Source of the DNA: an uncultured Gammaproteobacteria bacterium
GTDB lineage: Bacteria > Patescibacteriota > Patescibacteriia > Patescibacteriales > UBA12465
NCBI GenBank assembly: GCA_964517325.1
Contig: CAZFBV010000001.1
Location: 39,310-103,309 of the forward strand
DNA: 64,000 bases
Reading direction: 5' to 3'
Under the pieces are notes generated by a model that saw nothing but the letters and a program-made list of their open reading frames with translations, ran no database searches and was not told where the DNA came from. Positions within the stretch are counted from its first letter, which is position 1, and each line of letters begins with the position of its first letter. Positions 3,010-55,854 of the stretch are shown in pieces. Made by a program: the position numbers and the translations under genes.

Positions 3010-4224
3010 ATGATAATTGGGATTGACGCCTCGCGCGCTAATTTGCTCCACAAGACCGGTACCGAATGGTACTCTTTTTACTTGATCAAGAATCTGGCGG
3101 AAATAGATAAGGTTAATACTTATTGGCTCTACCTTAATCAGCCGGCGCAGCCGGAATTGGCGGCGGCGGTCAAGAATAATCCGAATTTTTCCTTCAAACT
3201 CTTGAAGTGGCCGTTCTTTTCCTTCTGGACTCTCGGCCGCCTGACTTTGGAGATGCTTTATCGCCGGCCGGACGTCTTGTTCATTCCGGCTCATACTTTG
3301 CCGCTCTTCGGCCCGCGCCGTACCGTCAACACTATCCATGATATCGCTTTCGTCCGCGAGCAGAATCTTTATCGGGCGGCTAAAGCAAAGACCAGCTTAG
3401 CCGGTTCGCGCCAGCTGATAAATTTTTTCGTCAGGCTCCTGACTCTGGGCCGCTATCGCAGCGATTCGGTCGACTATCTTTATTGGTCGACGGCTTTCGC
3501 TTTGCGTCACGCCAAAAAGATCATCGCCGTTTCCGAATTTACCAAGCAGGATATCTTGAATCTCTACCCTAAGACTCCGGCCGGCAAGGTAACCGTCGTC
3601 CATAATGGCTATAATGATAAGCTTTATCGCCGTCTGCCGGAAAATCCGGAGAAGACGGCGGCTATCTTGGATAAATACGGTTTAGAATCTCCATATTTCT
3701 TGTATATCGGCCGCCTGGAGAAAAAGAAGAATATCCCCGCTTTAGTCGAATCGTTTGCTTATTTGCGAGAGAATCATCCGGACATGAAAGCGAAACTGGT
3801 CTTGATCGGAGACGCCGGTTTCGGATTTGATGAGATAAAATATACTATCGAGGAATTCAATCTCAATAGCCAGGTGATTATGCCTGGTTGGGTAGCCGAA
3901 GAGGATATGCCTTATGTCATGAATGCCGCCGCCGCTTTTATCTTTCCGTCTAAGCATGAAGGTTTCGGCATCCCGGTTCTGCAGTCTTTGGCTTGCGGCA
4001 TTCCGACCGCCGTTTCTGATATTCCCGTCCTTAGGGAAGTCGCCGGCGACGCTGCTTTATATTTCGATCAGAATGATAAGCGGGCGATCGCGGCTGCCAT
4101 GGGTCGGATATTATCCGATGATGAGTTAAGAAAAAGCTTGGTTTTGAAAGGGCTGGAGCAGGCTAAAAAGTTCAGCTGGCGCCGCTGTGCCGAAGAGACT
4201 TTGCAGGTTATTACGAGCCTGTAA
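3010..4224 (+). CDS. glycosyltransferase, GT-B fold (GT4/GT1-like)
   Basis: 404 aa. C-terminal FIFPSKHEGFGIPVLQSLACGIPT (E-x7-E region). Confidence 0.8.
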   Translation: MIIGIDASRANLLHKTGTEWYSFYLIKNLAEIDKVNTYWLYLNQPAQPELAAAVKNNPNFSFKLLKWPFFSFWTLGRLTLEMLYRRPDVLFIPAHTLPLFGPRRTVNTIHDIAFVREQNLYRAAKAKTSLAGSRQLINFFVRLLTLGRYRSDSVDYLYWSTAFALRHAKKIIAVSEFTKQDILNLYPKTPAGKVTVVHNGYNDKLYRRLPENPEKTAAILDKYGLESPYFLYIGRLEKKKNIPALVESFAYLRENHPDMKAKLVLIGDAGFGFDEIKYTIEEFNLNSQVIMPGWVAEEDMPYVMNAAAAFIFPSKHEGFGIPVLQSLACGIPTAVSDIPVLREVAGDAALYFDQNDKRAIAAAMGRILSDDELRKSLVLKGLEQAKKFSWRRCAEETLQVITSL

Positions 4225-33643: not shown

Positions 33644-35722
33644 ATGGCTCGAGACTACGCGTTGGAAAACATCAGAAACATCGGCATCATGGCGCACATC
33701 GACGCCGGCAAAACTACTTTTACCGAGCGTGTTTTGTTTTATACCGGCAAGAAGCATAAGATCGGCGAAGTCCATGAAGGCGCCGCGGAAATGGATTGGA
33801 TGGAACAGGAAAAGGAAAGGGGTATCACTATTACCTCTGCCGCGACCACTTGTTTTTGGAAACAGAATAAGATCAATATCATCGATACCCCAGGGCACGT
33901 CGATTTCACTGTCGAAGTCGAGCGCTCTTTGCGTGTTTTAGACGGCGCTATCGCTGTCTTCGATGGCCAGGCCGGCGTCGAGCCGCAGTCTGAAACTGTC
34001 TGGCGCCAAGCGGATAAATACAATGTTCCTCGCCTGTGTTTCGTCAATAAGATGGATAAAATGGGTGCGGATTTTTACATGAGTTTGAACTCCATCAAGA
34101 CCAGATTGAACCAGAAAGCCGTGGCTATCCAGCTGCCTATCGGCGCGGAAAGCAATCTTAGCGGCGTTATCGACTTATTAGCTCAGAAGGCGTATAAGTT
34201 TACCGGCATGAATGGCGTCAATATTGAAGAGATCCCGGTTCCGGAAGATATGAAAGATAAGGTTGCTAAGTTCCATAACGAATTGATCGAAAAAGCCGTA
34301 GAGTGCGATGAAGCGACTATGGAAAAATATCTGAGCGGCGAGGAAATATCTTCTGAAGAATTGAAAGCAGCCATCAGAAAAGGCGTGATCGCTAATGCTA
34401 TTTATCCGGTTTTATGCGGTACCGCTTTGCAGAATATCGGCGTCCAGTTAGCGCTTGATGCGGTCAATGATTATCTCCCGTCTCCTTTGGATGTCCCGAC
34501 TTTGGAAGTGACCGACATGAAAGATGCGGATAAGAAGATTATCATTACGGCTGATGATGGCAAGCCTTTCGTCGGCTTAGCTTTTAAGATCGCCACTGAT
34601 CCGTTCGTCGGCAAGCTTTGCTTCGTCCGCGTTTATCAGGGTGTCCTGACGGCCGGTTCCTATATTCTCAACTCGTCTAAAGATAATAAAGAAAGAGTCG
34701 GGCGCTTGGTCCGCATGCATGCCAATCATCGTGAAGAAATCAAGGAGATCTGCGCTGGAGATATCGCCGCCGTTATCGGTTTGAAGAGCACGACTACCGG
34801 CAATACTTTGTGCGATGAGAATTCTCCTGTCTTATTAGAATCTATTGTTTTCCCGGAACCGGTCATTAAGATTGCGGTCGAACCGAAGACTAAGGCCGAC
34901 CAGGAGAAAATGGGCGTCGCCTTACAGCGTTTGGCTGAAGAAGATCCGACTTTCCGCGTCGAGACCGATCCGGAAACTAACCAGGTTCTCATTTCCGGCA
35001 TGGGCGAACTTCATTTGGAAATCATTGTCGATCGCATGAAGCGTGAATTCGGCGTCGAAGCTAACGTCGGCAATCCTCAGGTTTCTTATCGCGAAACGAT
35101 AACCAAAACGGCTGAAGCGGAACATAAATACGTCAAGCAATCCGGCGGTAAAGGACAATATGGACATTGTGCTTTGCGCGTCGAACCGCTTGAAACCGGC
35201 AAAGGCTTCGAGTTTGCCGATGAAGTTAAAGGCGGAGTCATTCCTCGCGAATTTATCCCGGCGATTGAAAAGGGCGTTAAGGAAGCGATTCTCAGCGGCA
35301 TCGTGGCCGGATACCCGATGGTTGATGTCAAAGCGGCCGTTTATTACGGTTCTTACCATGAAGTCGACTCTTCGGAAATCGCTTTCAAATTAGCAGCTAT
35401 CTTCGCTTTTAAGGAAGCTTGCCAGAAAGCCGGCGCTATCCTGCTCGAACCGATTATGAAAGTTGAAGTCACTACCCCGGAAGAATATATGGGCAACATC
35501 ATCGGCGATCTTAGTTCCAAGAGAGGACAGATCGAAGAAATGTCTGATCGCGCGAATATCAAAGTCGTCAAGGCTAAAGTTCCGCTTGCTGAAATGTTCG
35601 GCTATTCTACCGGCTTGCGTTCCATGAGCCAAGGCCGCGCTAATTATGTGATGGAATTCTCTCATTACTCGGAAGTGCCGAAGAATATCTTAGAGGCTAT
35701 CAAAGAGAAGCAAGGGAAGTAA
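33644..35722 (+). CDS. fusA: elongation factor G
   Basis: 692 aa. [17 protein letters not shown] and NKMDK GTPase motifs. Confidence 0.95.
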
Positions 35723-35822
35723 AAAATTATATTTTTTCCACTCAGGATTTTTTCTGTGGCAAAATCAATTAACATTGATTTTGCTCTACGAAAAAATATT
35801 CGTTCCAAAAATATGATTTTTT
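35721..35822 (+). repeat. structured palindromic repeat, copy A (REP-like family)
   Basis: Starts inside the fusA stop codon. 16-bp outer stem (one G.U), 8-bp middle stem attttttc/gaaaaaat, conserved tgtg...tctac, and an 11-bp apical hairpin gcaaaatcaat-taac-attgattttgc. Homologous to 52014-52123 and 52144-52246. Confidence 0.8.
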
Positions 35823-35851
35823 ACAACAGTTCATATTAATAACATTTGTGT

Positions 35852-36235
35852 ATGTTCCCAGAACAGTTAAAAAAAATTCTGAACCTAGTTAAAAAGACCG
35901 GTGACCGGGTAGTAATCTTCGACGCCAGCGCTCCGGATGATTCTTATGTGATCATGGGTTTTGATAATTATGCCGCTGGCCTGAATTCTGTTCCGTCCTC
36001 AAAAATCGCCAAGATTCAAGAAACCCCGGCTAATACCCCGATTATGGCTGATTTATCAGTAAATTTTGAAGAAAAGGAAAATTTGACAGAAGAAGATTTA
36101 ACTGATAAGATTAATCGCGAAATCTCGATGTGGAAAAATCGAGAAAATTCTGTTTTCTTGGGGGAAGAGAATAAGCCTAAAAAAGCTTGGCAAATCCCTT
36201 CGAAAGTAAAAGATAAAGCGCAGGAAATAGAGTAA
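35852..36235 (+). CDS. hypothetical acidic protein inserted between fusA and tuf
   Basis: 127 aa from ATG 35852 (track TTG 35846). No recognisable motif. Confidence 0.5.
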   Translation: MFPEQLKKILNLVKKTGDRVVIFDASAPDDSYVIMGFDNYAAGLNSVPSSKIAKIQETPANTPIMADLSVNFEEKENLTEEDLTDKINREISMWKNRENSVFLGEENKPKKAWQIPSKVKDKAQEIE

Positions 36236-36362: not shown

Positions 36363-37553
36363 ATGGCAACAGAAAAATTTGAACGCACCAAGCCCCATGT
36401 TAACGTCGGTACTATCGGCCACGTTGACCATGGGAAGACTACCTTAACCGCCGCGATGTTAGCCGTTTTCAATGCCAAAGGCATGAAAGCTTCTCACAAA
36501 GGCGTCGGTGAAATCGATGCCGCTCCTGAAGAAAAAGAGAGAGGTATCACTATCGCCACCGCTCACGTCGAGTATGAGTCTGAAAAGAGACATTATGCTC
36601 ACGTCGATTGTCCGGGCCACGCCGATTATGTCAAGAACATGATTACCGGTGCCGCTCAAATGGATGGCGCTATCTTGGTGGTCGCTGCGACTGATGGCCC
36701 TATGCCTCAGACCAGAGAACACATCTTATTGGCTCGCCAGGTCGGCGTCCCTTATATCATTGTCTTCTTGAATAAGTGCGATATGGTTGAAGATAAGGAA
36801 TTGATCGACCTCGTCGAAGAAGAAATCCGTGATTTATTGAAGAAATACGAATTCCCAGGCGATACCACCCCGATTATCAGAGGTTCTGCCTTGAAGGCTT
36901 TAGAGAACCCGACCGGCGCTGATGCCGAGCCGATCATGAAGCTGATGGAGACCTTGGATTCTTATATCCCTGAGCCTACCCGCGATGTCAATCTTCCTTA
37001 CTTGATGCCTATCGAGGATATCTTCTCAATCGAAGGCCGCGGTACCGTTGTTACCGGCCGTATCGAAAGAGGCGCCGTCAAAGTCGGCGATGAAGTTGAA
37101 ATCGTCGGTTTGATGGATACTAAAAAGACTACCGTTACCGGCATTGAAATGTTCAATAAGTCTTTGGATCAAGGTATGGCTGGCGATAACGCCGGTATCT
37201 TGCTTCGCGGTACTAAGAAGAATGAAGTTGAGCGCGGCCAGGTTTTATGCAAACCGGGATCTATCACTCCTCACACTGAATTCACTGCTGAAGTCTATGT
37301 CCTGTCTAAGGATGAAGGCGGACGCCATAAGCCGTTCTTCAACGGCTATAAGCCGCAATTCTACTTCAAGACTACTGATGTTACCGGCGATATTACTTTA
37401 GCCGCCGGCACTGAAATGGTTATGCCTGGAGATACTACTAACTTAACTATTAAGTTAATTGCTCCGATCGCTCTTGAAGACAAACAGAAATTTACCATTC
37501 GCGAAGGCGGTCGTACCGTTGGCGCGGGTGTCGTTACTAAGATTTTAAAGTAA
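36363..37553 (+). CDS. tuf: elongation factor Tu
   Basis: [12 protein letters not shown] start (track GTG 36333 extends into the leader). [17 protein letters not shown] and NKCD motifs. Confidence 0.95.
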
Positions 37554-37560
37554 CCACTTT

Positions 37561-37587
37561 AGCCTGCTCTTGATGAAAGGGCAGGCT
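37561..37587 (+). terminator. hairpin after tuf (weak terminator or processing/stability element)
   Basis: agcctgc ... gcaggct 7-bp GC-rich stem with a 13-nt loop; no clear U-tract. Confidence 0.35.
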
Positions 37588-37613
37588 TGTAGTGTATATT
37601 TTAAATAATAATT

Positions 37614-48687: not shown

Positions 48688-48712
48688 TCCTATATCCAGC
48701 CAATAAGAATAT

Positions 48713-48742
48713 AAAAAATCGGCTTTAAAGCTGATTTTTTTT
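48713..48742 (+). terminator. intrinsic terminator after secY
   Basis: atcggc-tttaaa-gctgat hairpin (one G.U) flanked by an A-run and T8. Confidence 0.65.
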
Positions 48743-48743
48743 A

Positions 48744-48752
48744 TGGTATAAT
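48744..48752 (+). promoter_or_regulatory. extended -10 promoter (TGgTATAAT) placed for a near-leaderless transcript
   Basis: TGgTATAAT at 48744-48752. The ATG of the next ORF at 48761 lies 8 nt after the -10 element. Confidence 0.5.
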
Positions 48753-48760
48753 GAATTGAT

Positions 48761-51623: not shown

Positions 51624-52013
51624 ATGGACAAGATCTTAAATTATTTAGGCGTAGACTGGGGCGAAAAGCGGATCGGCTTGGCCACGGCCGATAGTGAAGT
51701 AAAGTTAGCCCTGCCTTTGAAAACTGTCGCTAATTTGGCCGAAGTCTTGGGCGTGCTTAAAGAAGAGGAAACCAACGTCATTATTGTCGGCGCTCCTCAG
51801 AAAATGAGCGGGGAAGCAGCGAATAATCCGGCTTGGATCGATTTTGTCGCGCAATTGAAAGAGAAAAGCGGCCTGCCAGTCGAGACGGTCGATGAACGCT
51901 TGAGCAGCTTAGCGGCGGACGCTCTGGGAGGGGAAGATAAGGAAACGGCCGGGCGCGATGAAATTGCCGCCTCGATAATACTTCAGGGTTATCTTGATAA
52001 ACCTAGCAAGTAA
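51624..52013 (+). CDS. ruvX: YqgF/RuvX-family putative pre-16S rRNA nuclease / Holliday junction resolvase-like protein
   Basis: 129 aa. LGVDWGEKRIGLA motif. Confidence 0.85.
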   Translation: MDKILNYLGVDWGEKRIGLATADSEVKLALPLKTVANLAEVLGVLKEEETNVIIVGAPQKMSGEAANNPAWIDFVAQLKEKSGLPVETVDERLSSLAADALGGEDKETAGRDEIAASIILQGYLDKPSK

Positions 52014-52123
52014 TAAGCTAAAGAATATGTTTTCTCCGCTTAGGGTGATTTCTGTGGCAATCCGCCAGTTGGCGGATTGCTCTACGAAATCACATGCGCT
52101 TCAAAAACATATTCTTTAGCTTA
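52014..52123 (+). repeat. structured palindromic repeat, copy B1 (REP-like family)
   Basis: Starts 1 nt after the ruvX stop. Perfect 20-bp outer stem taagctaaagaatatgtttt/aaaacatattctttagctta, 8-bp middle stem gtgatttc/gaaatcac, conserved tgtg...tctac, and apical hairpin gcaatccgcc-agtt-ggcggattgc. Confidence 0.85.
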
Positions 52124-52143
52124 TTGTGTAAGATATCAAGAGT

Positions 52144-52246
52144 TTAGGAAATATTTTTTGAAGTGAATATTTTTTCGTAAAGCAAAAATCAATGTTAATT
52201 GATTTTTGCCACAGAAAAAATCCTGAACGTAAAAAATATTTCCTAA
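52144..52246 (-). repeat. structured palindromic repeat, copy B2 (REP-like family, inverted relative to B1)
   Basis: The reverse complement is nearly identical to copy A in the central ~60 nt (ttcaggattttttctgtggcaaaaatcaattaacattgatttttgctttacgaaaaaatattc). Perfect 16-bp outer stem ttaggaaatatttttt/aaaaaatatttcctaa. Ends 8 nt before the recO ATG. Confidence 0.85.
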
Positions 52247-52254
52247 GATCTTAT

Positions 52255-53143: not shown

Positions 53144-54445
53144 ATGTCAAGGATATTGATTGCTGACGCAAAAAAACAGGGGGCCGGCGAAGTGACTGTG
53201 TCCGGCTGGGTAAGGAATCTGCGTGCTCATAAAGGCATAGTTTTTGTGGACTTGCGCGATATTTCCGGATCGATGCAGGTTGTTTTCGTTTCCGGCCAGG
53301 GAGGTTATGAGCTAGCGGAAAAATTAACTCTGGAAAGCGTTATCGCCGTAACCGGAACCTTGCAAGAAAAGCCGGCTAAGAAGAATGATCCTAATCCGGT
53401 TAAAGATTTTGAATTAGCGGCTTCAAGCGCGGAGCTGATTTCTTTGTCTGATGAAAATCTGCCTATCCCGGTCCTGACAAAAGCGGATAATGAAGCCAAC
53501 TCCGAGAACCGTTTTGACTGGCGTTGGCTGGATCTGCGCCAGGAAGAGCATCAGCTCATCTTTAAAGTCTGGACAAAATTAGAAGCCGGCTGCCGTGAAT
53601 ATTGGTTGAAGAATAATTTTATCCAAATCTATACCCCATGCTTCATGAGCACGGCCTCAGAAACCGGTTCCGAGGTATTTGAAGTTAAATATTTTGATCG
53701 CAAGGCTTATCTAGCCCAGTCCCCGCAATTCTACAAGCAGATGGCTATGGCCTCCGGCTTGGAAAAAGTCTTTATGGTCGGCACTGTTTTCCGCGCTGAA
53801 CCTTCTTTCACTAGCCGCCATGTCACGGAGTTTACCGGTTGGGATCTTGAGGTTTCTTTTATCGATTATAACGAAGTTATGAGCATAGAAGAAGATCTGT
53901 TGATTTCTGGATTTGCCAAAGTCAAGGAGGACTTAGGGCTAGCCATTGAAGTCCCATCCAAGCCTTTCCCGAAGATAACTTTGGCGGCAGCTAAGGAAAA
54001 ACTAAAAGCGGCCGGTATTAAGAGCGAGAAAGATTATGATTTTTCTACGGAAGAGGAAAGGGAATTGGGCAATATCATCAAGAATGAAACCGGCCATGAT
54101 TTTGTTTTCGTAACTGATTATCCGATCGCGGCGCGTCCTTTCTATCATATGCGCCATCAGGATAATCCCGGATTAACTAAGAGTTTTGATTTATTATACC
54201 GCGGTCTAGAAATAACGACCGGATCGCAGCGCGAGCATCGGATAGAAATTCTGGAAAAACAGGCGGTTGAAAAGGGTATGAGCTTGGAAGAACTTAAAGA
54301 TTATTTGAACTTTTTCCGTTACGGCTGCCCGAGCCATAGCGGTATCGGCATGGGTCCGGGGCGCATTGTCATGAAGATGCTGGATTTGCCTAGCGTTAAG
54401 GAAGCTTGTTTCTTGCCGAGAGATGTAAAGAGATTAACCCCATAA
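53144..54445 (+). CDS. aspS: aspartate--tRNA ligase, short archaeal/eukaryal-type (no GAD insertion)
   Basis: 433 aa. N-terminal OB fold and class IIb motifs [11 protein letters not shown] and [11 protein letters not shown]. Confidence 0.85.
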
Positions 54446-54462
54446 TCATTAATCATTTCTAT

Positions 54463-55854
54463 ATGTCTTATACTCCCATCAAATCATTATATAAAGACAC
54501 CGGCCGCTACCTGAATAAGAAGATAAATGTCGCCGGCTGGGTCAGGACGGCGCGTTCTTCCAAGGAATTCGGCTTCATTGAGCTTAATGACGGTTCTTTC
54601 TTCAAGAGTCTGCAGATTGTCTTTGAGAGCGGCTTAGAAAATTTTTCCGAGGTAGAAAATATCAGCGTCGGTTCATCTTTGGAAATAGAAGGCGAACTGG
54701 TCGAATCTCCCGCTGCCGGGCAGGCTTTCGAACTCCAGGCCAAAAAGATAACTATCATCAACCGCGCCCCGGAAGATTATCCGCTCCAGAAGAAGAAGCA
54801 TAGCTTCGAGTTCTTGCGCGAGATTGCGCATCTGCGCGGCCGCAGCAATACTTTTTCTGCCGTCTTCCGCTTGCGCTCTTCACTCAGCTACGCTATCCAT
54901 AAATTTTTCCAGGAAGAAGGCTTCTCTTATGTCCATACTCCGATAATCTCCACGAGCGATGCCGAAGGCGCGGGCGAGATGTTCCAAGTGACGACTTTAG
55001 ATTTAAAAAATACGCCTAAAGATAAGAAAGGCGAAGTCGATTACAGCGAAGATTTTTTCGGCAAAAAAGCGGGACTGACTGTCAGCGGCCAGCTTAACGC
55101 TGAAGCTTTAGTCATGGGTTTGAATAAGGTCTATACTTTCGGCCCGACTTTCCGCGCTGAGAATTCGAATACGACCCGCCATGCTTCCGAATTTTGGATG
55201 ATGGAGCCGGAAATGGCTTTTGCTGATTTGAATGACGACATGGCTCTGGCTGAAAAGATGCTGAAATATCTGGTCGCCTATGTCTTGAAAGAATTGCCGG
55301 AAGAGATGGAATTTTTCAATAAGTTCATCGATACTACGCTGATGGAACGTTTGCATAATATCGTCAGCTCTGAATTCGGTCGGGTCACTTATACTGAAGC
55401 GATCAAGATTTTAGAAAAATCCGGCGAGAAGTTCGCTTTCCCGGTAAAATGGGGAATCGATCTCCAGACTGAGCATGAACGCTATCTGACCGATAAGGTC
55501 TTTAAGAAGCCAGTCTTTGTCATTGATTATCCGAAAGATATCAAAGCTTTCTATATGCGCCTGAACGATGATGGCAAGACCGTCGCCGCCATGGATCTGT
55601 TAGTTCCTGGCATCGGCGAGATCATCGGCGGCAGCCAAAGGGAAGAACGTTTAGATAATCTGACTAAGCGCATGAAGGAGATGAATATGAAGCTGGAAGA
55701 CTATCAATGGTATCTGGATCTGCGCCGCTTCGGTTCCGTCAAGCACGCCGGTTTCGGCTTAGGCTTTGAACGGGCGATCATGTATCTGTCTGGAATGGCT
55801 AATATCCGCGATGTCATCCCGTTCCCGCGCACTCCGAAGAATGCCGAGTTCTAA
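54463..55854 (+). CDS. asnS: asparagine--tRNA ligase
   Basis: ATG 54463; the track start 54406 overlaps asp[22 protein letters not shown] and [12 protein letters not shown]. Confidence 0.88.

Follow-up and report, generated by a model that had tools for sequence, protein, structure and literature searches.

Repetitive extragenic palindromes (REPs) of the GTAG-tagged format consist of a tag, a stem of 6-13 bp and a short motif on the far side of the stem, and the longer palindromes in which some of them are embedded, such as GTAG-15 of Anabaena variabilis and CGTC-1 of Halothiobacillus neapolitanus, were never found empty (Di Nocera et al., 2013, PMC3733652). REPs usually exceed 100 copies per genome (Nunvar et al., 2010). 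REPINs, a related format, combine conserved ends with hairpin spacers that carry compensatory changes (Bertels and Rainey, 2011, PMC3116915). Here we describe a family of palindromic elements from a 64,000-nt stretch of contig CAZFBV010000001.1 (hereafter the window), in which two copies, B1 and B2, fill the spacer between ruvX and recO, and a third, B3, lies downstream of fusA. We tentatively favour the reading that these elements are lineage-restricted, low-copy, non-coding and non-autonomous REP/REPIN-like nested DNA palindromes, which would be handled as single-stranded DNA (ssDNA) hairpins by an enzyme of the Y1/HUH type.

The ruvX stop codon (52011-52013) and the recO ATG (52255) enclose 241 nt (52014-52254), consisting of B1 (52014-52123, plus strand), a 20-nt linker, B2 (52144-52246, minus strand) and 8 nt up to the recO ATG. 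This layout and the position of B3, as given in a preliminary description of the window, were re-derived and found correct. That description had also proposed one long hairpin common to the three copies, and folding of all three bore this out: each forms an outer stem, an asymmetric loop (loop 1), an 8-bp middle stem, a bulged loop and an apical hairpin. With RNA parameters, the energies of B1, B2 and B3 were -57, -35 and -28 kcal/mol (z = -11.8, -9.0 and -5.9; 0 of 200 shuffles as good), DNA parameters gave z = -12.2, -10.0 and -7.4, and the complementary strands folded equally well. The helices of B1 and B2 differ as had been quoted, the apical one being tccgcc/ggcgga in B1 versus aatcaat/attgatt, and the middle one gtgatttc/gaaatcac versus attttttc/gaaaaaat. 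The outer stem of B1, reported as 20 of 20 paired, is indeed fully paired, but its length had been understated: the pairing reaches 2 nt beyond 52014-52123 on each side, including the last two nucleotides of the ruvX stop codon, and comprises 22 of 22 positions. Likewise, the near identity claimed between B2 and B3 holds for the central ~65 nt but not overall (80%, 86/107), as their outer stems differ. In loop 1 of B1, a GC/GC mini-helix of 2 bp covaries, and so does one isolated pair; both are set among conserved pyrimidine-pyrimidine mismatches. In its apical module GTGG is able to pair with CTAC, leaving a T bulged on the 5' side and CT on the 3' side, and on the minus strand the module reads GTAG-A-palindrome, which is REP-like.

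To search for further copies, the pattern CTGTGGCAA-N(10-40)-TTGCTYTACGAA was run on the GTDB representative genomes and on a metagenome collection, and a covariance model, the check proposed in the preliminary description, was built; its E-values, the model being a custom one, are rough. In total, ~37 distinct copies of one architecture were obtained, all in Falkowbacteria-like Patescibacteria. Among the representative genomes, 24 loci matched the pattern, 11 of which, from 10 genomes, had the full three-helix architecture, whereas the other 13 (L001-L003, L006, L009-L012, L018, L020 and L022-L024) lacked the hairpin and were discarded as chance matches. Seven of the 11 true copies came from metagenome-assembled genomes (MAGs) labelled Patescibacteria or Falkowbacteria; the remaining four are labelled 'uncultured Gammaproteobacteria', yet their flanking genes are Falkowbacteria-like. 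These labels (L007; L013, CAYIZF01; L019, CAYYDR01; L021, CAZMKG01) look wrong; the map and ruvX genes of L013 are ~70% identical to those of the window, and RecO P0022 is 61% identical to the window's RecO. The metagenome scan yielded 24 stretches, of which 23 were confirmed by the model and one (L036) was discarded as a chance match. Five copies were found independently of the pattern (L008b, the second copy in L008; L051a; L051b; L063; and L027b).

Copy numbers were low: the model, searched with filters off, found exactly three copies in the 64 kb of the window, and the representative genomes had one or two exact-core matches each. No copy was found by the model in the 20-kb stretches of L050 and L052 that are syntenic with the window. 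Viral contigs gave 0 stretches with the strict core pattern and 10 with a relaxed one, all of them chance matches by model score (one, L072, was folded too), and phage and plasmid collections had no blastn match to the elements. A short-read contig with an identical RuvX (L049; Logan SRR12404947_199936, 3283-3432) stops 146 nt past the ruvX stop codon, ~15 nt into B2; the B2/B3 repeat probably interrupted the assembly at this point, in which case the elements break short-read assemblies.

Complete elements measure 100-145 nt and have a common anatomy. A locus-specific outer stem of 16-30 bp encloses a conserved core, which comprises the middle stem and loop 1, the latter bearing CGCT motifs on either side; the core in turn carries the apical module, TTTC-T-GTGG, hairpin, CT(C/T)TAC-GAAA, which on the other strand is a palindrome tagged by GTAG or GTAA. 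The unpaired loops and bulges are the parts conserved in sequence, while all helices are free to vary. The distal arms are the least conserved part and are unrelated between copies, even between B2 and B3 with their shared core; GC-rich distal arms are present in L017 and L044.

To quantify the structural constraint, 37 pairs were scored in an alignment of 34 copies, 33 of them distinct, with slid partners and 500 shuffles as controls. Standard pairs occupied 92.9% of cells, compared with 42-51% when the partners were slid; 24 of the 37 pairs showed double changes (9-14 in the slid controls), which amounted to 230 double-change cells (28-61), and the covariation score of 0.463 (0.12 in shuffles) was reached by none of the 500 shuffles. 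Covariation was found in every helix, in agreement with the earlier claim of selection on structure, and extended to the mini-helix and the isolated pair of loop 1. The mini-helix is GC/GC in 23 copies, GT/AC in four and AC/GT in four, with single mismatches in two; for the isolated pair, 18 copies have A-T, eight have C-G and one is an exception, and the neighbouring juxtapositions C.T, T.C and G.A remain unpaired in all copies. Around the apical hairpin, pairing of GTGG with CTAC or TTAC is possible and would bulge out T (5') and CT or TT (3'). One-sided stem changes were almost absent.

Comparison of orthologous sites, for which orthology was judged from synteny and shared arm sequences, revealed inversion, exchange and loss. 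The spacer beside a HIT-family gene is filled in L004, L007, L015, L021, L027 and L045, and the element lies in sense in L004 and L007 and in antisense in L015 and L021, which shows that the core was flipped in place: between L007 and L021 the ~85-nt core is 100% identical and the flanking protein 90% identical, with the core in opposite orientation. In L027, the HIT gene has elements on both sides. The ruvX-recO spacer is filled in the window, L051, L008, L013, L032 and L046. That of L051 holds two elements as an inverted pair, as in the window, but with the cores exchanged: the first element (+) has a core of the B2 type and the second (-) one of the B1 type, with linker and outer flanks collinear with those of the window. 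L032 (RuvX 69% identical) is a mosaic, in which the distal arm of B1, TAAGCTAAA..., stands right after the stop codon and is combined with a B2-type core. In L063, the orthologue of B3, the apical hairpin has been precisely replaced by one of the B1 type, which agrees with that of B1 at 20 of 22 positions. Outside the apex, L063 and B3 differ at 3 of 81 positions, versus 8 of 27 in the adjacent non-coding tail (Fisher p = 6e-4); this 3.7% compares with differences of 7.7% and 11.7% in the two coding flanks.

Loss was assessed at ruvX-recO in eight close relatives with RecO 78-83% identical, among them L051 with its two elements. The spacer of L050 is 6 nt long and element-free, and in L052-L054, three copies of one locus, ruvX and recO overlap without an element. 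L055, L056, L058 and L060 retain remnants of 22-45 nt immediately after the ruvX stop codon, which match the 5' arm and loop 1 of an element; in L056, the start of an L051-type element is joined to the final 10 nt of the window's spacer. Thus, the ancestral ruvX-recO spacer was filled, and most of the palindrome was deleted in several lineages. In JAPLVZ01, a MAG with a B1-type core upstream of ruvA (L005), the ruvX/recO junction (L052) is empty, and the fusA-orf127 junction, which holds B3 in the window, is empty in L062 (spacer AAATATAT). Insertion into a pre-existing terminator hairpin, considered as the source of the locus-specific outer arms, is not supported at ruvX/recO and fusA/orf127, where the empty junctions of relatives show no such hairpin, but it may apply elsewhere, given the GC-rich distal arms of L017 and L044. 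A nested event was found in L027 (859-1051, minus strand), a degenerate member in which a 69-nt hairpin-bearing insertion lies exactly after CTTTAC and ends in GATAC, whereupon GAAA continues the element. Within the inserted sequence, CGCTC-like motifs border a perfect hairpin of 11 bp, so that it may represent a second, smaller palindromic family.

Could the conserved structure be that of an RNA, that is, either a cis-acting mRNA element (an RNase III-type site, a 3' stabiliser or a terminator) or an independent small RNA with protein-binding loops? The stability of the hairpins and their strong covariation would suit such a role, as would the resemblance of the isolated covarying pairs, set beside conserved non-canonical juxtapositions (G.A, T.G, Y.Y), to an RNA motif. 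If a structured RNA were read from one strand, however, G-U pairs should be numerous on it, and among ~1100 variable stem cells, 973 were Watson-Crick, 11 G-T and 26 A-C; thus, G-U was not in excess over A-C, and a strand-asymmetry test on these two mispairs for the functional RNA strand showed no asymmetry. The elements usually occupy the entire intergenic spacer, fill spacers of co-directional genes, abut stop codons and are conserved above neighbouring non-coding DNA, but their orientation to the neighbouring genes is random (13 sense versus 20 antisense; binomial p = 0.30), and mean model scores are equal either way (94.3 bits in sense, 95.7 bits in antisense). One identical copy, on two metagenome contigs (L025, 2219-2342; L047, 4801-4924), even lies between divergent genes; its neighbours encode a 308-aa protein without assigned function and YebC/TACO1, and the site is a promoter region and not a 3' region. 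Likewise speaking against an RNA, the core was flipped between genomes whose flanking proteins are 90% identical, and close relatives in which ruvX and recO overlap or lie 6 nt apart have no substitute element. Searches for known families and signals pointed the same way. Against Rfam 15, the whole window gave 0 hits at the gathering threshold, and the spacer, searched at E <= 10, matched nothing but generic miRNA models of long hairpins (14-27 bits, against thresholds of 51-140); no Rfam family explains the architecture. Scans for sigma-70 promoters and intrinsic terminators returned counts at the shuffle level, with no terminator-like site inside the elements; the T-runs are paired within the outer stem, and no U-tract follows any sub-hairpin. 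The roles raised in the preliminary description (3'-UTR stabiliser, terminator or small RNA) are thus disfavoured by the random orientation, the lack of G-U excess, the core flips and the chance-level signals, and we consider a structured RNA unlikely.

By contrast, strict Watson-Crick pairing on both strands, indifference to the direction of transcription, in-place flips, exchange of cores and apices, and deletion scars together argue for a palindrome that matters at the DNA level rather than for an mRNA motif. The conserved asymmetric bulges and loops further suggest that a folded single strand is recognised, since homogenisation of the arms of a simple inverted repeat would not keep them. 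In the mechanism that we propose, the strand would adopt a DNA hairpin or cruciform fold whenever it is single-stranded, as in replication. An ssDNA-specific recombinase that is encoded at another place, most likely of the HUH/Y1 type and RAYT- or IS200-like (RAYT, REP-associated tyrosine transposase), would recognise and cut the bulged conserved junction at the apical hairpin, with predicted cuts 3' of CT(C/T)TAC and in or beside TGTGG. The nested inverted repeats and the blocks common to the copies could then let cores and apices flip, exchange and convert. Repair templated by the hairpin, or template switching, may keep the arms complementary as DNA, with selection acting against hairpins that are broken, and effects on neighbouring genes, such as mRNA hairpins, would be a by-product.

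Several observations weigh against a mobile element of this kind. No Y1/RAYT gene was found by tblastn with IS200, IS608 and E. coli RAYT queries in the 516 kb of the window and loci, where the best match had E = 0.34 and lay at a locus carrying only a chance match to the scan pattern. Target-site duplications were absent, both as flanking direct repeats and in comparisons of empty with filled sites; the copies share no conserved termini, and their number is far below that of typical REPs and REPINs. The invariance of the loop blocks TTTCTGTGG and CTYTACGAAA is in part an effect of ascertainment, because both large scans required them, although all five pattern-independent copies still keep TTTCTGTGG and CTYTAC(-)GAAA. 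Furthermore, ruvX-recO is occupied even where RecO is only 53-60% identical, and outer-arm sequence is kept at that distance. From this persistence of filled spacers, and from the conservation of the element above its coding flanks, host-level purifying selection appears to act, which a purely selfish element would not need.

Compared with GTAG-tagged REPs, the apex of the elements is alike in having an unpaired GTAG-type tag, a stem of 10-13 bp, a short loop and a conserved short motif opposite. The apical module is nested in a larger palindrome, which never occurs without it; and as with these REPs, the elements are intergenic, mostly between co-directional genes, form inverted pairs and fall into sub-families with complementary stem changes. 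The differences are nevertheless substantial. The tag, read on the strand complementary to the element, is GTAG in 24 and GTAA in nine (27%) of the 33 distinct copies, numbers biased by the requirement of the scans for CTYTAC, against conservation in more than 90% of members in REPs, and it is set 1 nt away from the apical stem; the five pattern-independent copies all have CTCTAC or CTTTAC. A genome has a few copies here, against tens to hundreds for REPs; the palindrome around the apex is elaborately conserved and has a second loop with CGCT motifs; G-T pairs, common in REPs, are rare; and no RAYT was found in the 516 kb, whereas genomes with REPs or REPINs have a cognate RAYT gene with repeats on its flanks. 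The match to REPs and bacterial interspersed mosaic elements (BIMEs) that had been proposed at the outset is reasonable as a description of the apex, which has the format of a GTAG-tagged palindrome, but fails on the low copy number and, for the element as a whole, on size: the apical module alone, with its tag, 10-13-bp stem and 4-nt loop, has ~31-37 nt, within the 20-40 bp of a REP unit, whereas the whole element has 100-145 nt, and the high copy number typical of REPs was not found. In BIMEs, REPs are regularly spaced and alternate in orientation; B1 (+) and B2 (-) form an inverted pair 20 nt apart, as do the two elements of L051, but the units here are whole 105-nt elements, and most sites are single-copy.

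REPINs resemble the elements as hairpins of ~100 nt in which near-inverted conserved blocks surround a spacer constrained only by length and pairing, and in that new elements insert into or beside existing ones. They differ in that conservation here resides in internal loops and not in left and right ends, and in the low copy number of the elements. On inspection, the blocks TTTCTGTGG(CAA) and (TTG)CTYTACGAAA flank a compensatory hairpin, and neither half folds alone; the blocks are not palindromic REPs, so that there is no alternative 'clover' fold. The ends of IS200/IS605 elements and PATE share the sub-terminal imperfect hairpin with extrahelical bases. In IS200/IS605 and RAYT enzymes, guide and cleavage sites follow rules of complementarity, to which the complementarity of GTGG, 5' of the hairpin foot, with CTAC/TTAC, 3' of the foot, can be likened. 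IS608 inserts 3' of TTAC, and the nested insertion in L027 lies exactly 3' of TTAC. Unlike IS200/IS605, however, the elements form a single hairpin with no separate left and right ends, have no tnpA or tnpB nearby and are not matched by the IS605-related RNA models of Rfam.

An alternative at the DNA level is a structural site of the host, that is, a cruciform or hairpin bound by a chromosomal protein acting in recombination or repair, replication, segregation or nucleoid organisation, which host selection would retain at particular intergenic positions, with only occasional gene conversion between sites. A cruciform requires strict Watson-Crick pairing on both strands, as seen here, and the conservation above that of coding flanks and the long occupancy (at least six genomes and four remnants for ruvX-recO, six genomes for the HIT-gene spacer) would be explained. 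The diverse housekeeping neighbours of the copies include, by raw tally, many genes acting on DNA (ruvX, recO, ruvA, recR/ybaB, fpg and parA/parB), but also a heterogeneous set comprising fusA, rpsG, the HIT-family gene, sugar epimerases, metK, the ATP synthase genes atpA/atpG, gap (GAPDH), tpiA, hrcA and TPR genes. Moreover, the same junctions are empty in close relatives, and no binding protein is known. We consider a host site unlikely, to the same degree as a structured RNA. Still less probable, in our view, is a variant of the ssDNA-hairpin reading in which the nested palindrome would be the substrate of a new ssDNA structure-specific recombination system in the Candidate Phyla Radiation, with the T-GTGG/CTYTAC junction as the place where apical hairpin cassettes and entire cores would be cut, flipped and exchanged among copies. 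Such shuffling would differ from the classical REP/RAYT, MITE and integron systems. Because host selection appears to retain the element beside core genes, its role might be regulatory or structural.

A classical MITE (miniature inverted-repeat transposable element), moved by a DDE transposase via conserved terminal inverted repeats and target-site duplication as in ERIC or Correia, is very unlikely. The size of 100-145 bp, long inverted arms, intergenic location, occurrence in both orientations and presence/absence polymorphism are those of a MITE, and a TA duplication would be hidden inside the A/T-rich palindrome. The distribution of conservation is nevertheless the reverse of that expected, with the termini least conserved and the internal loops conserved; no target-site duplication is recognisable, and neither a transposase gene in or near any copy nor an autonomous version of greater length was observed. 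ERIC/IRU and Correia (NEMIS) elements are also imperfect palindromes of ~100-150 bp in transcribed intergenic regions, in either orientation, with possible long RNA hairpins and presence/absence differences between strains, but they keep their sequence including the termini, whereas here stems vary, loops are fixed and copies are far fewer. Integron attC, Xer/dif-like and hairpin-ribozyme readings were rejected on sequence inspection: attC sites are alike in recognition of structure over sequence and in their succession of stem, unpaired spacer, stem with extrahelical bases and variable terminal structure, but by inspection the hairpin base has no RYYYAAC/GTTRRRY boxes, and cassette arrays and a nearby intI are absent, the neighbours being housekeeping genes. 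A bridge RNA, in which loops vary and stems are conserved, is the opposite of what is seen here, and no reverse-transcriptase gene, as a retron msd would suggest, lies beside the copies whose flanking genes were identified.

Table 1. Coordinates and parts of the three palindromic elements in the 64,000-nt window.
Feature	Position	Strand	Remarks
B1, whole hairpin	52012-52125	+	inverted repeat, 22/22 paired; model score 102 bits
B1 outer stem, 5' arm	52012-52033	+	partner 52104-52125; distal arm TAAGCTAAA...
B1 outer stem, 3' arm	52104-52125	+	from inverted-repeat search
B1 internal loop 1, 5' side CTCCGCTTAGG	52034-52044	+	opposite side ATGCGCTTC at 52094-52102
B1 middle stem, 5' arm GTGATTTC	52045-52052	+	partner GAAATCAC at 52086-52093
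B1 apical module	52053-52085	+	T-GTGG, hairpin, CTCTAC
B1 apical hairpin CAATCCGCC-AGTT-GGCGGATTG	52058-52079	+	from folding
Linker between B1 and B2	52126-52143		collinear with the L051 linker, though the L051 cores sit in swapped positions
B2, whole hairpin	52144-52246	-	antisense to ruvX and recO; model score 107 bits
B2 outer stem	52231-52246 / 52144-52159	-	from folding
B2 middle stem	52214-52221 / 52169-52176	-	from folding
B2 apex	52183-52208	-	from folding
B2 CTTTAC	52177-52182	-	GTAA when read on the plus strand
B3, whole hairpin	35719-35824	+	35721-35822 in the preliminary description; inverted repeat; model score 100 bits

Pfam confirmed RuvX and RecO on the flanks of the B1/B2 spacer, with Map preceding and an AspRS-like gene coming after. 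The recO start is supported by homologues of 247-251 aa that begin at an equivalent position (52255). An in-frame ATG inside B2 (52192) lengthens the recO open reading frame (ORF) to 270 aa, and the element thus supplies recO with a spurious start codon further upstream; another start was probably chosen in the deposited annotation, because the 249-aa product is absent from the gene-position index. After recO, two adjacent genes for class II aminoacyl-tRNA synthetases of the Asp/Asn/Lys type (433 and ~463-482 aa) occupy 53144-55854, a pair kept in L050, L051 and L052. B3 sits between fusA, whose stop codon (35720-35722) lies within the outer stem, and a conserved 127-aa ORF (35852-36235), which is followed by tuf; the order fusA-ORF-tuf is the same in L062 and L063. 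The ORF has no Pfam match and 295 homologues at E <= 1e-10, of which the named ones are all from Patescibacteria/Falkowbacteria MAGs, one being just 'bacterium'; one source labels the homologue P0238 'ribosomal protein L30E'. Composite hairpins, with an A/T-rich outer stem around a G+C-richer hairpin, were also noted at 37542-37609 (directly after the tuf stop codon, which it overlaps) and 48701-48754 (after secY). The element model gives them no more than 16 bits, and they resemble bidirectional terminators; A/T-rich outer stems overlapping stop codons may be a general feature of this genome. No tRNA or tmRNA was found in the window.

Most work on REP, REPIN, ERIC and Correia elements concerns Proteobacteria and other bacteria in culture, and Patescibacteria, whose genomes are streamlined, are usually taken to contain little mobile DNA; a non-exhaustive literature search found no comparable small palindromic repeat in this group. 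The family described here belongs among the small palindromic repeats, within which it is distinguished by conserved loops with free helices, nested modules and the exchange of cores and apices. It offers a tractable case for the question of whether REP-like elements are parasites or domesticated structures, and for that of how cells whose repair machinery is minimal recognise and maintain DNA hairpins.

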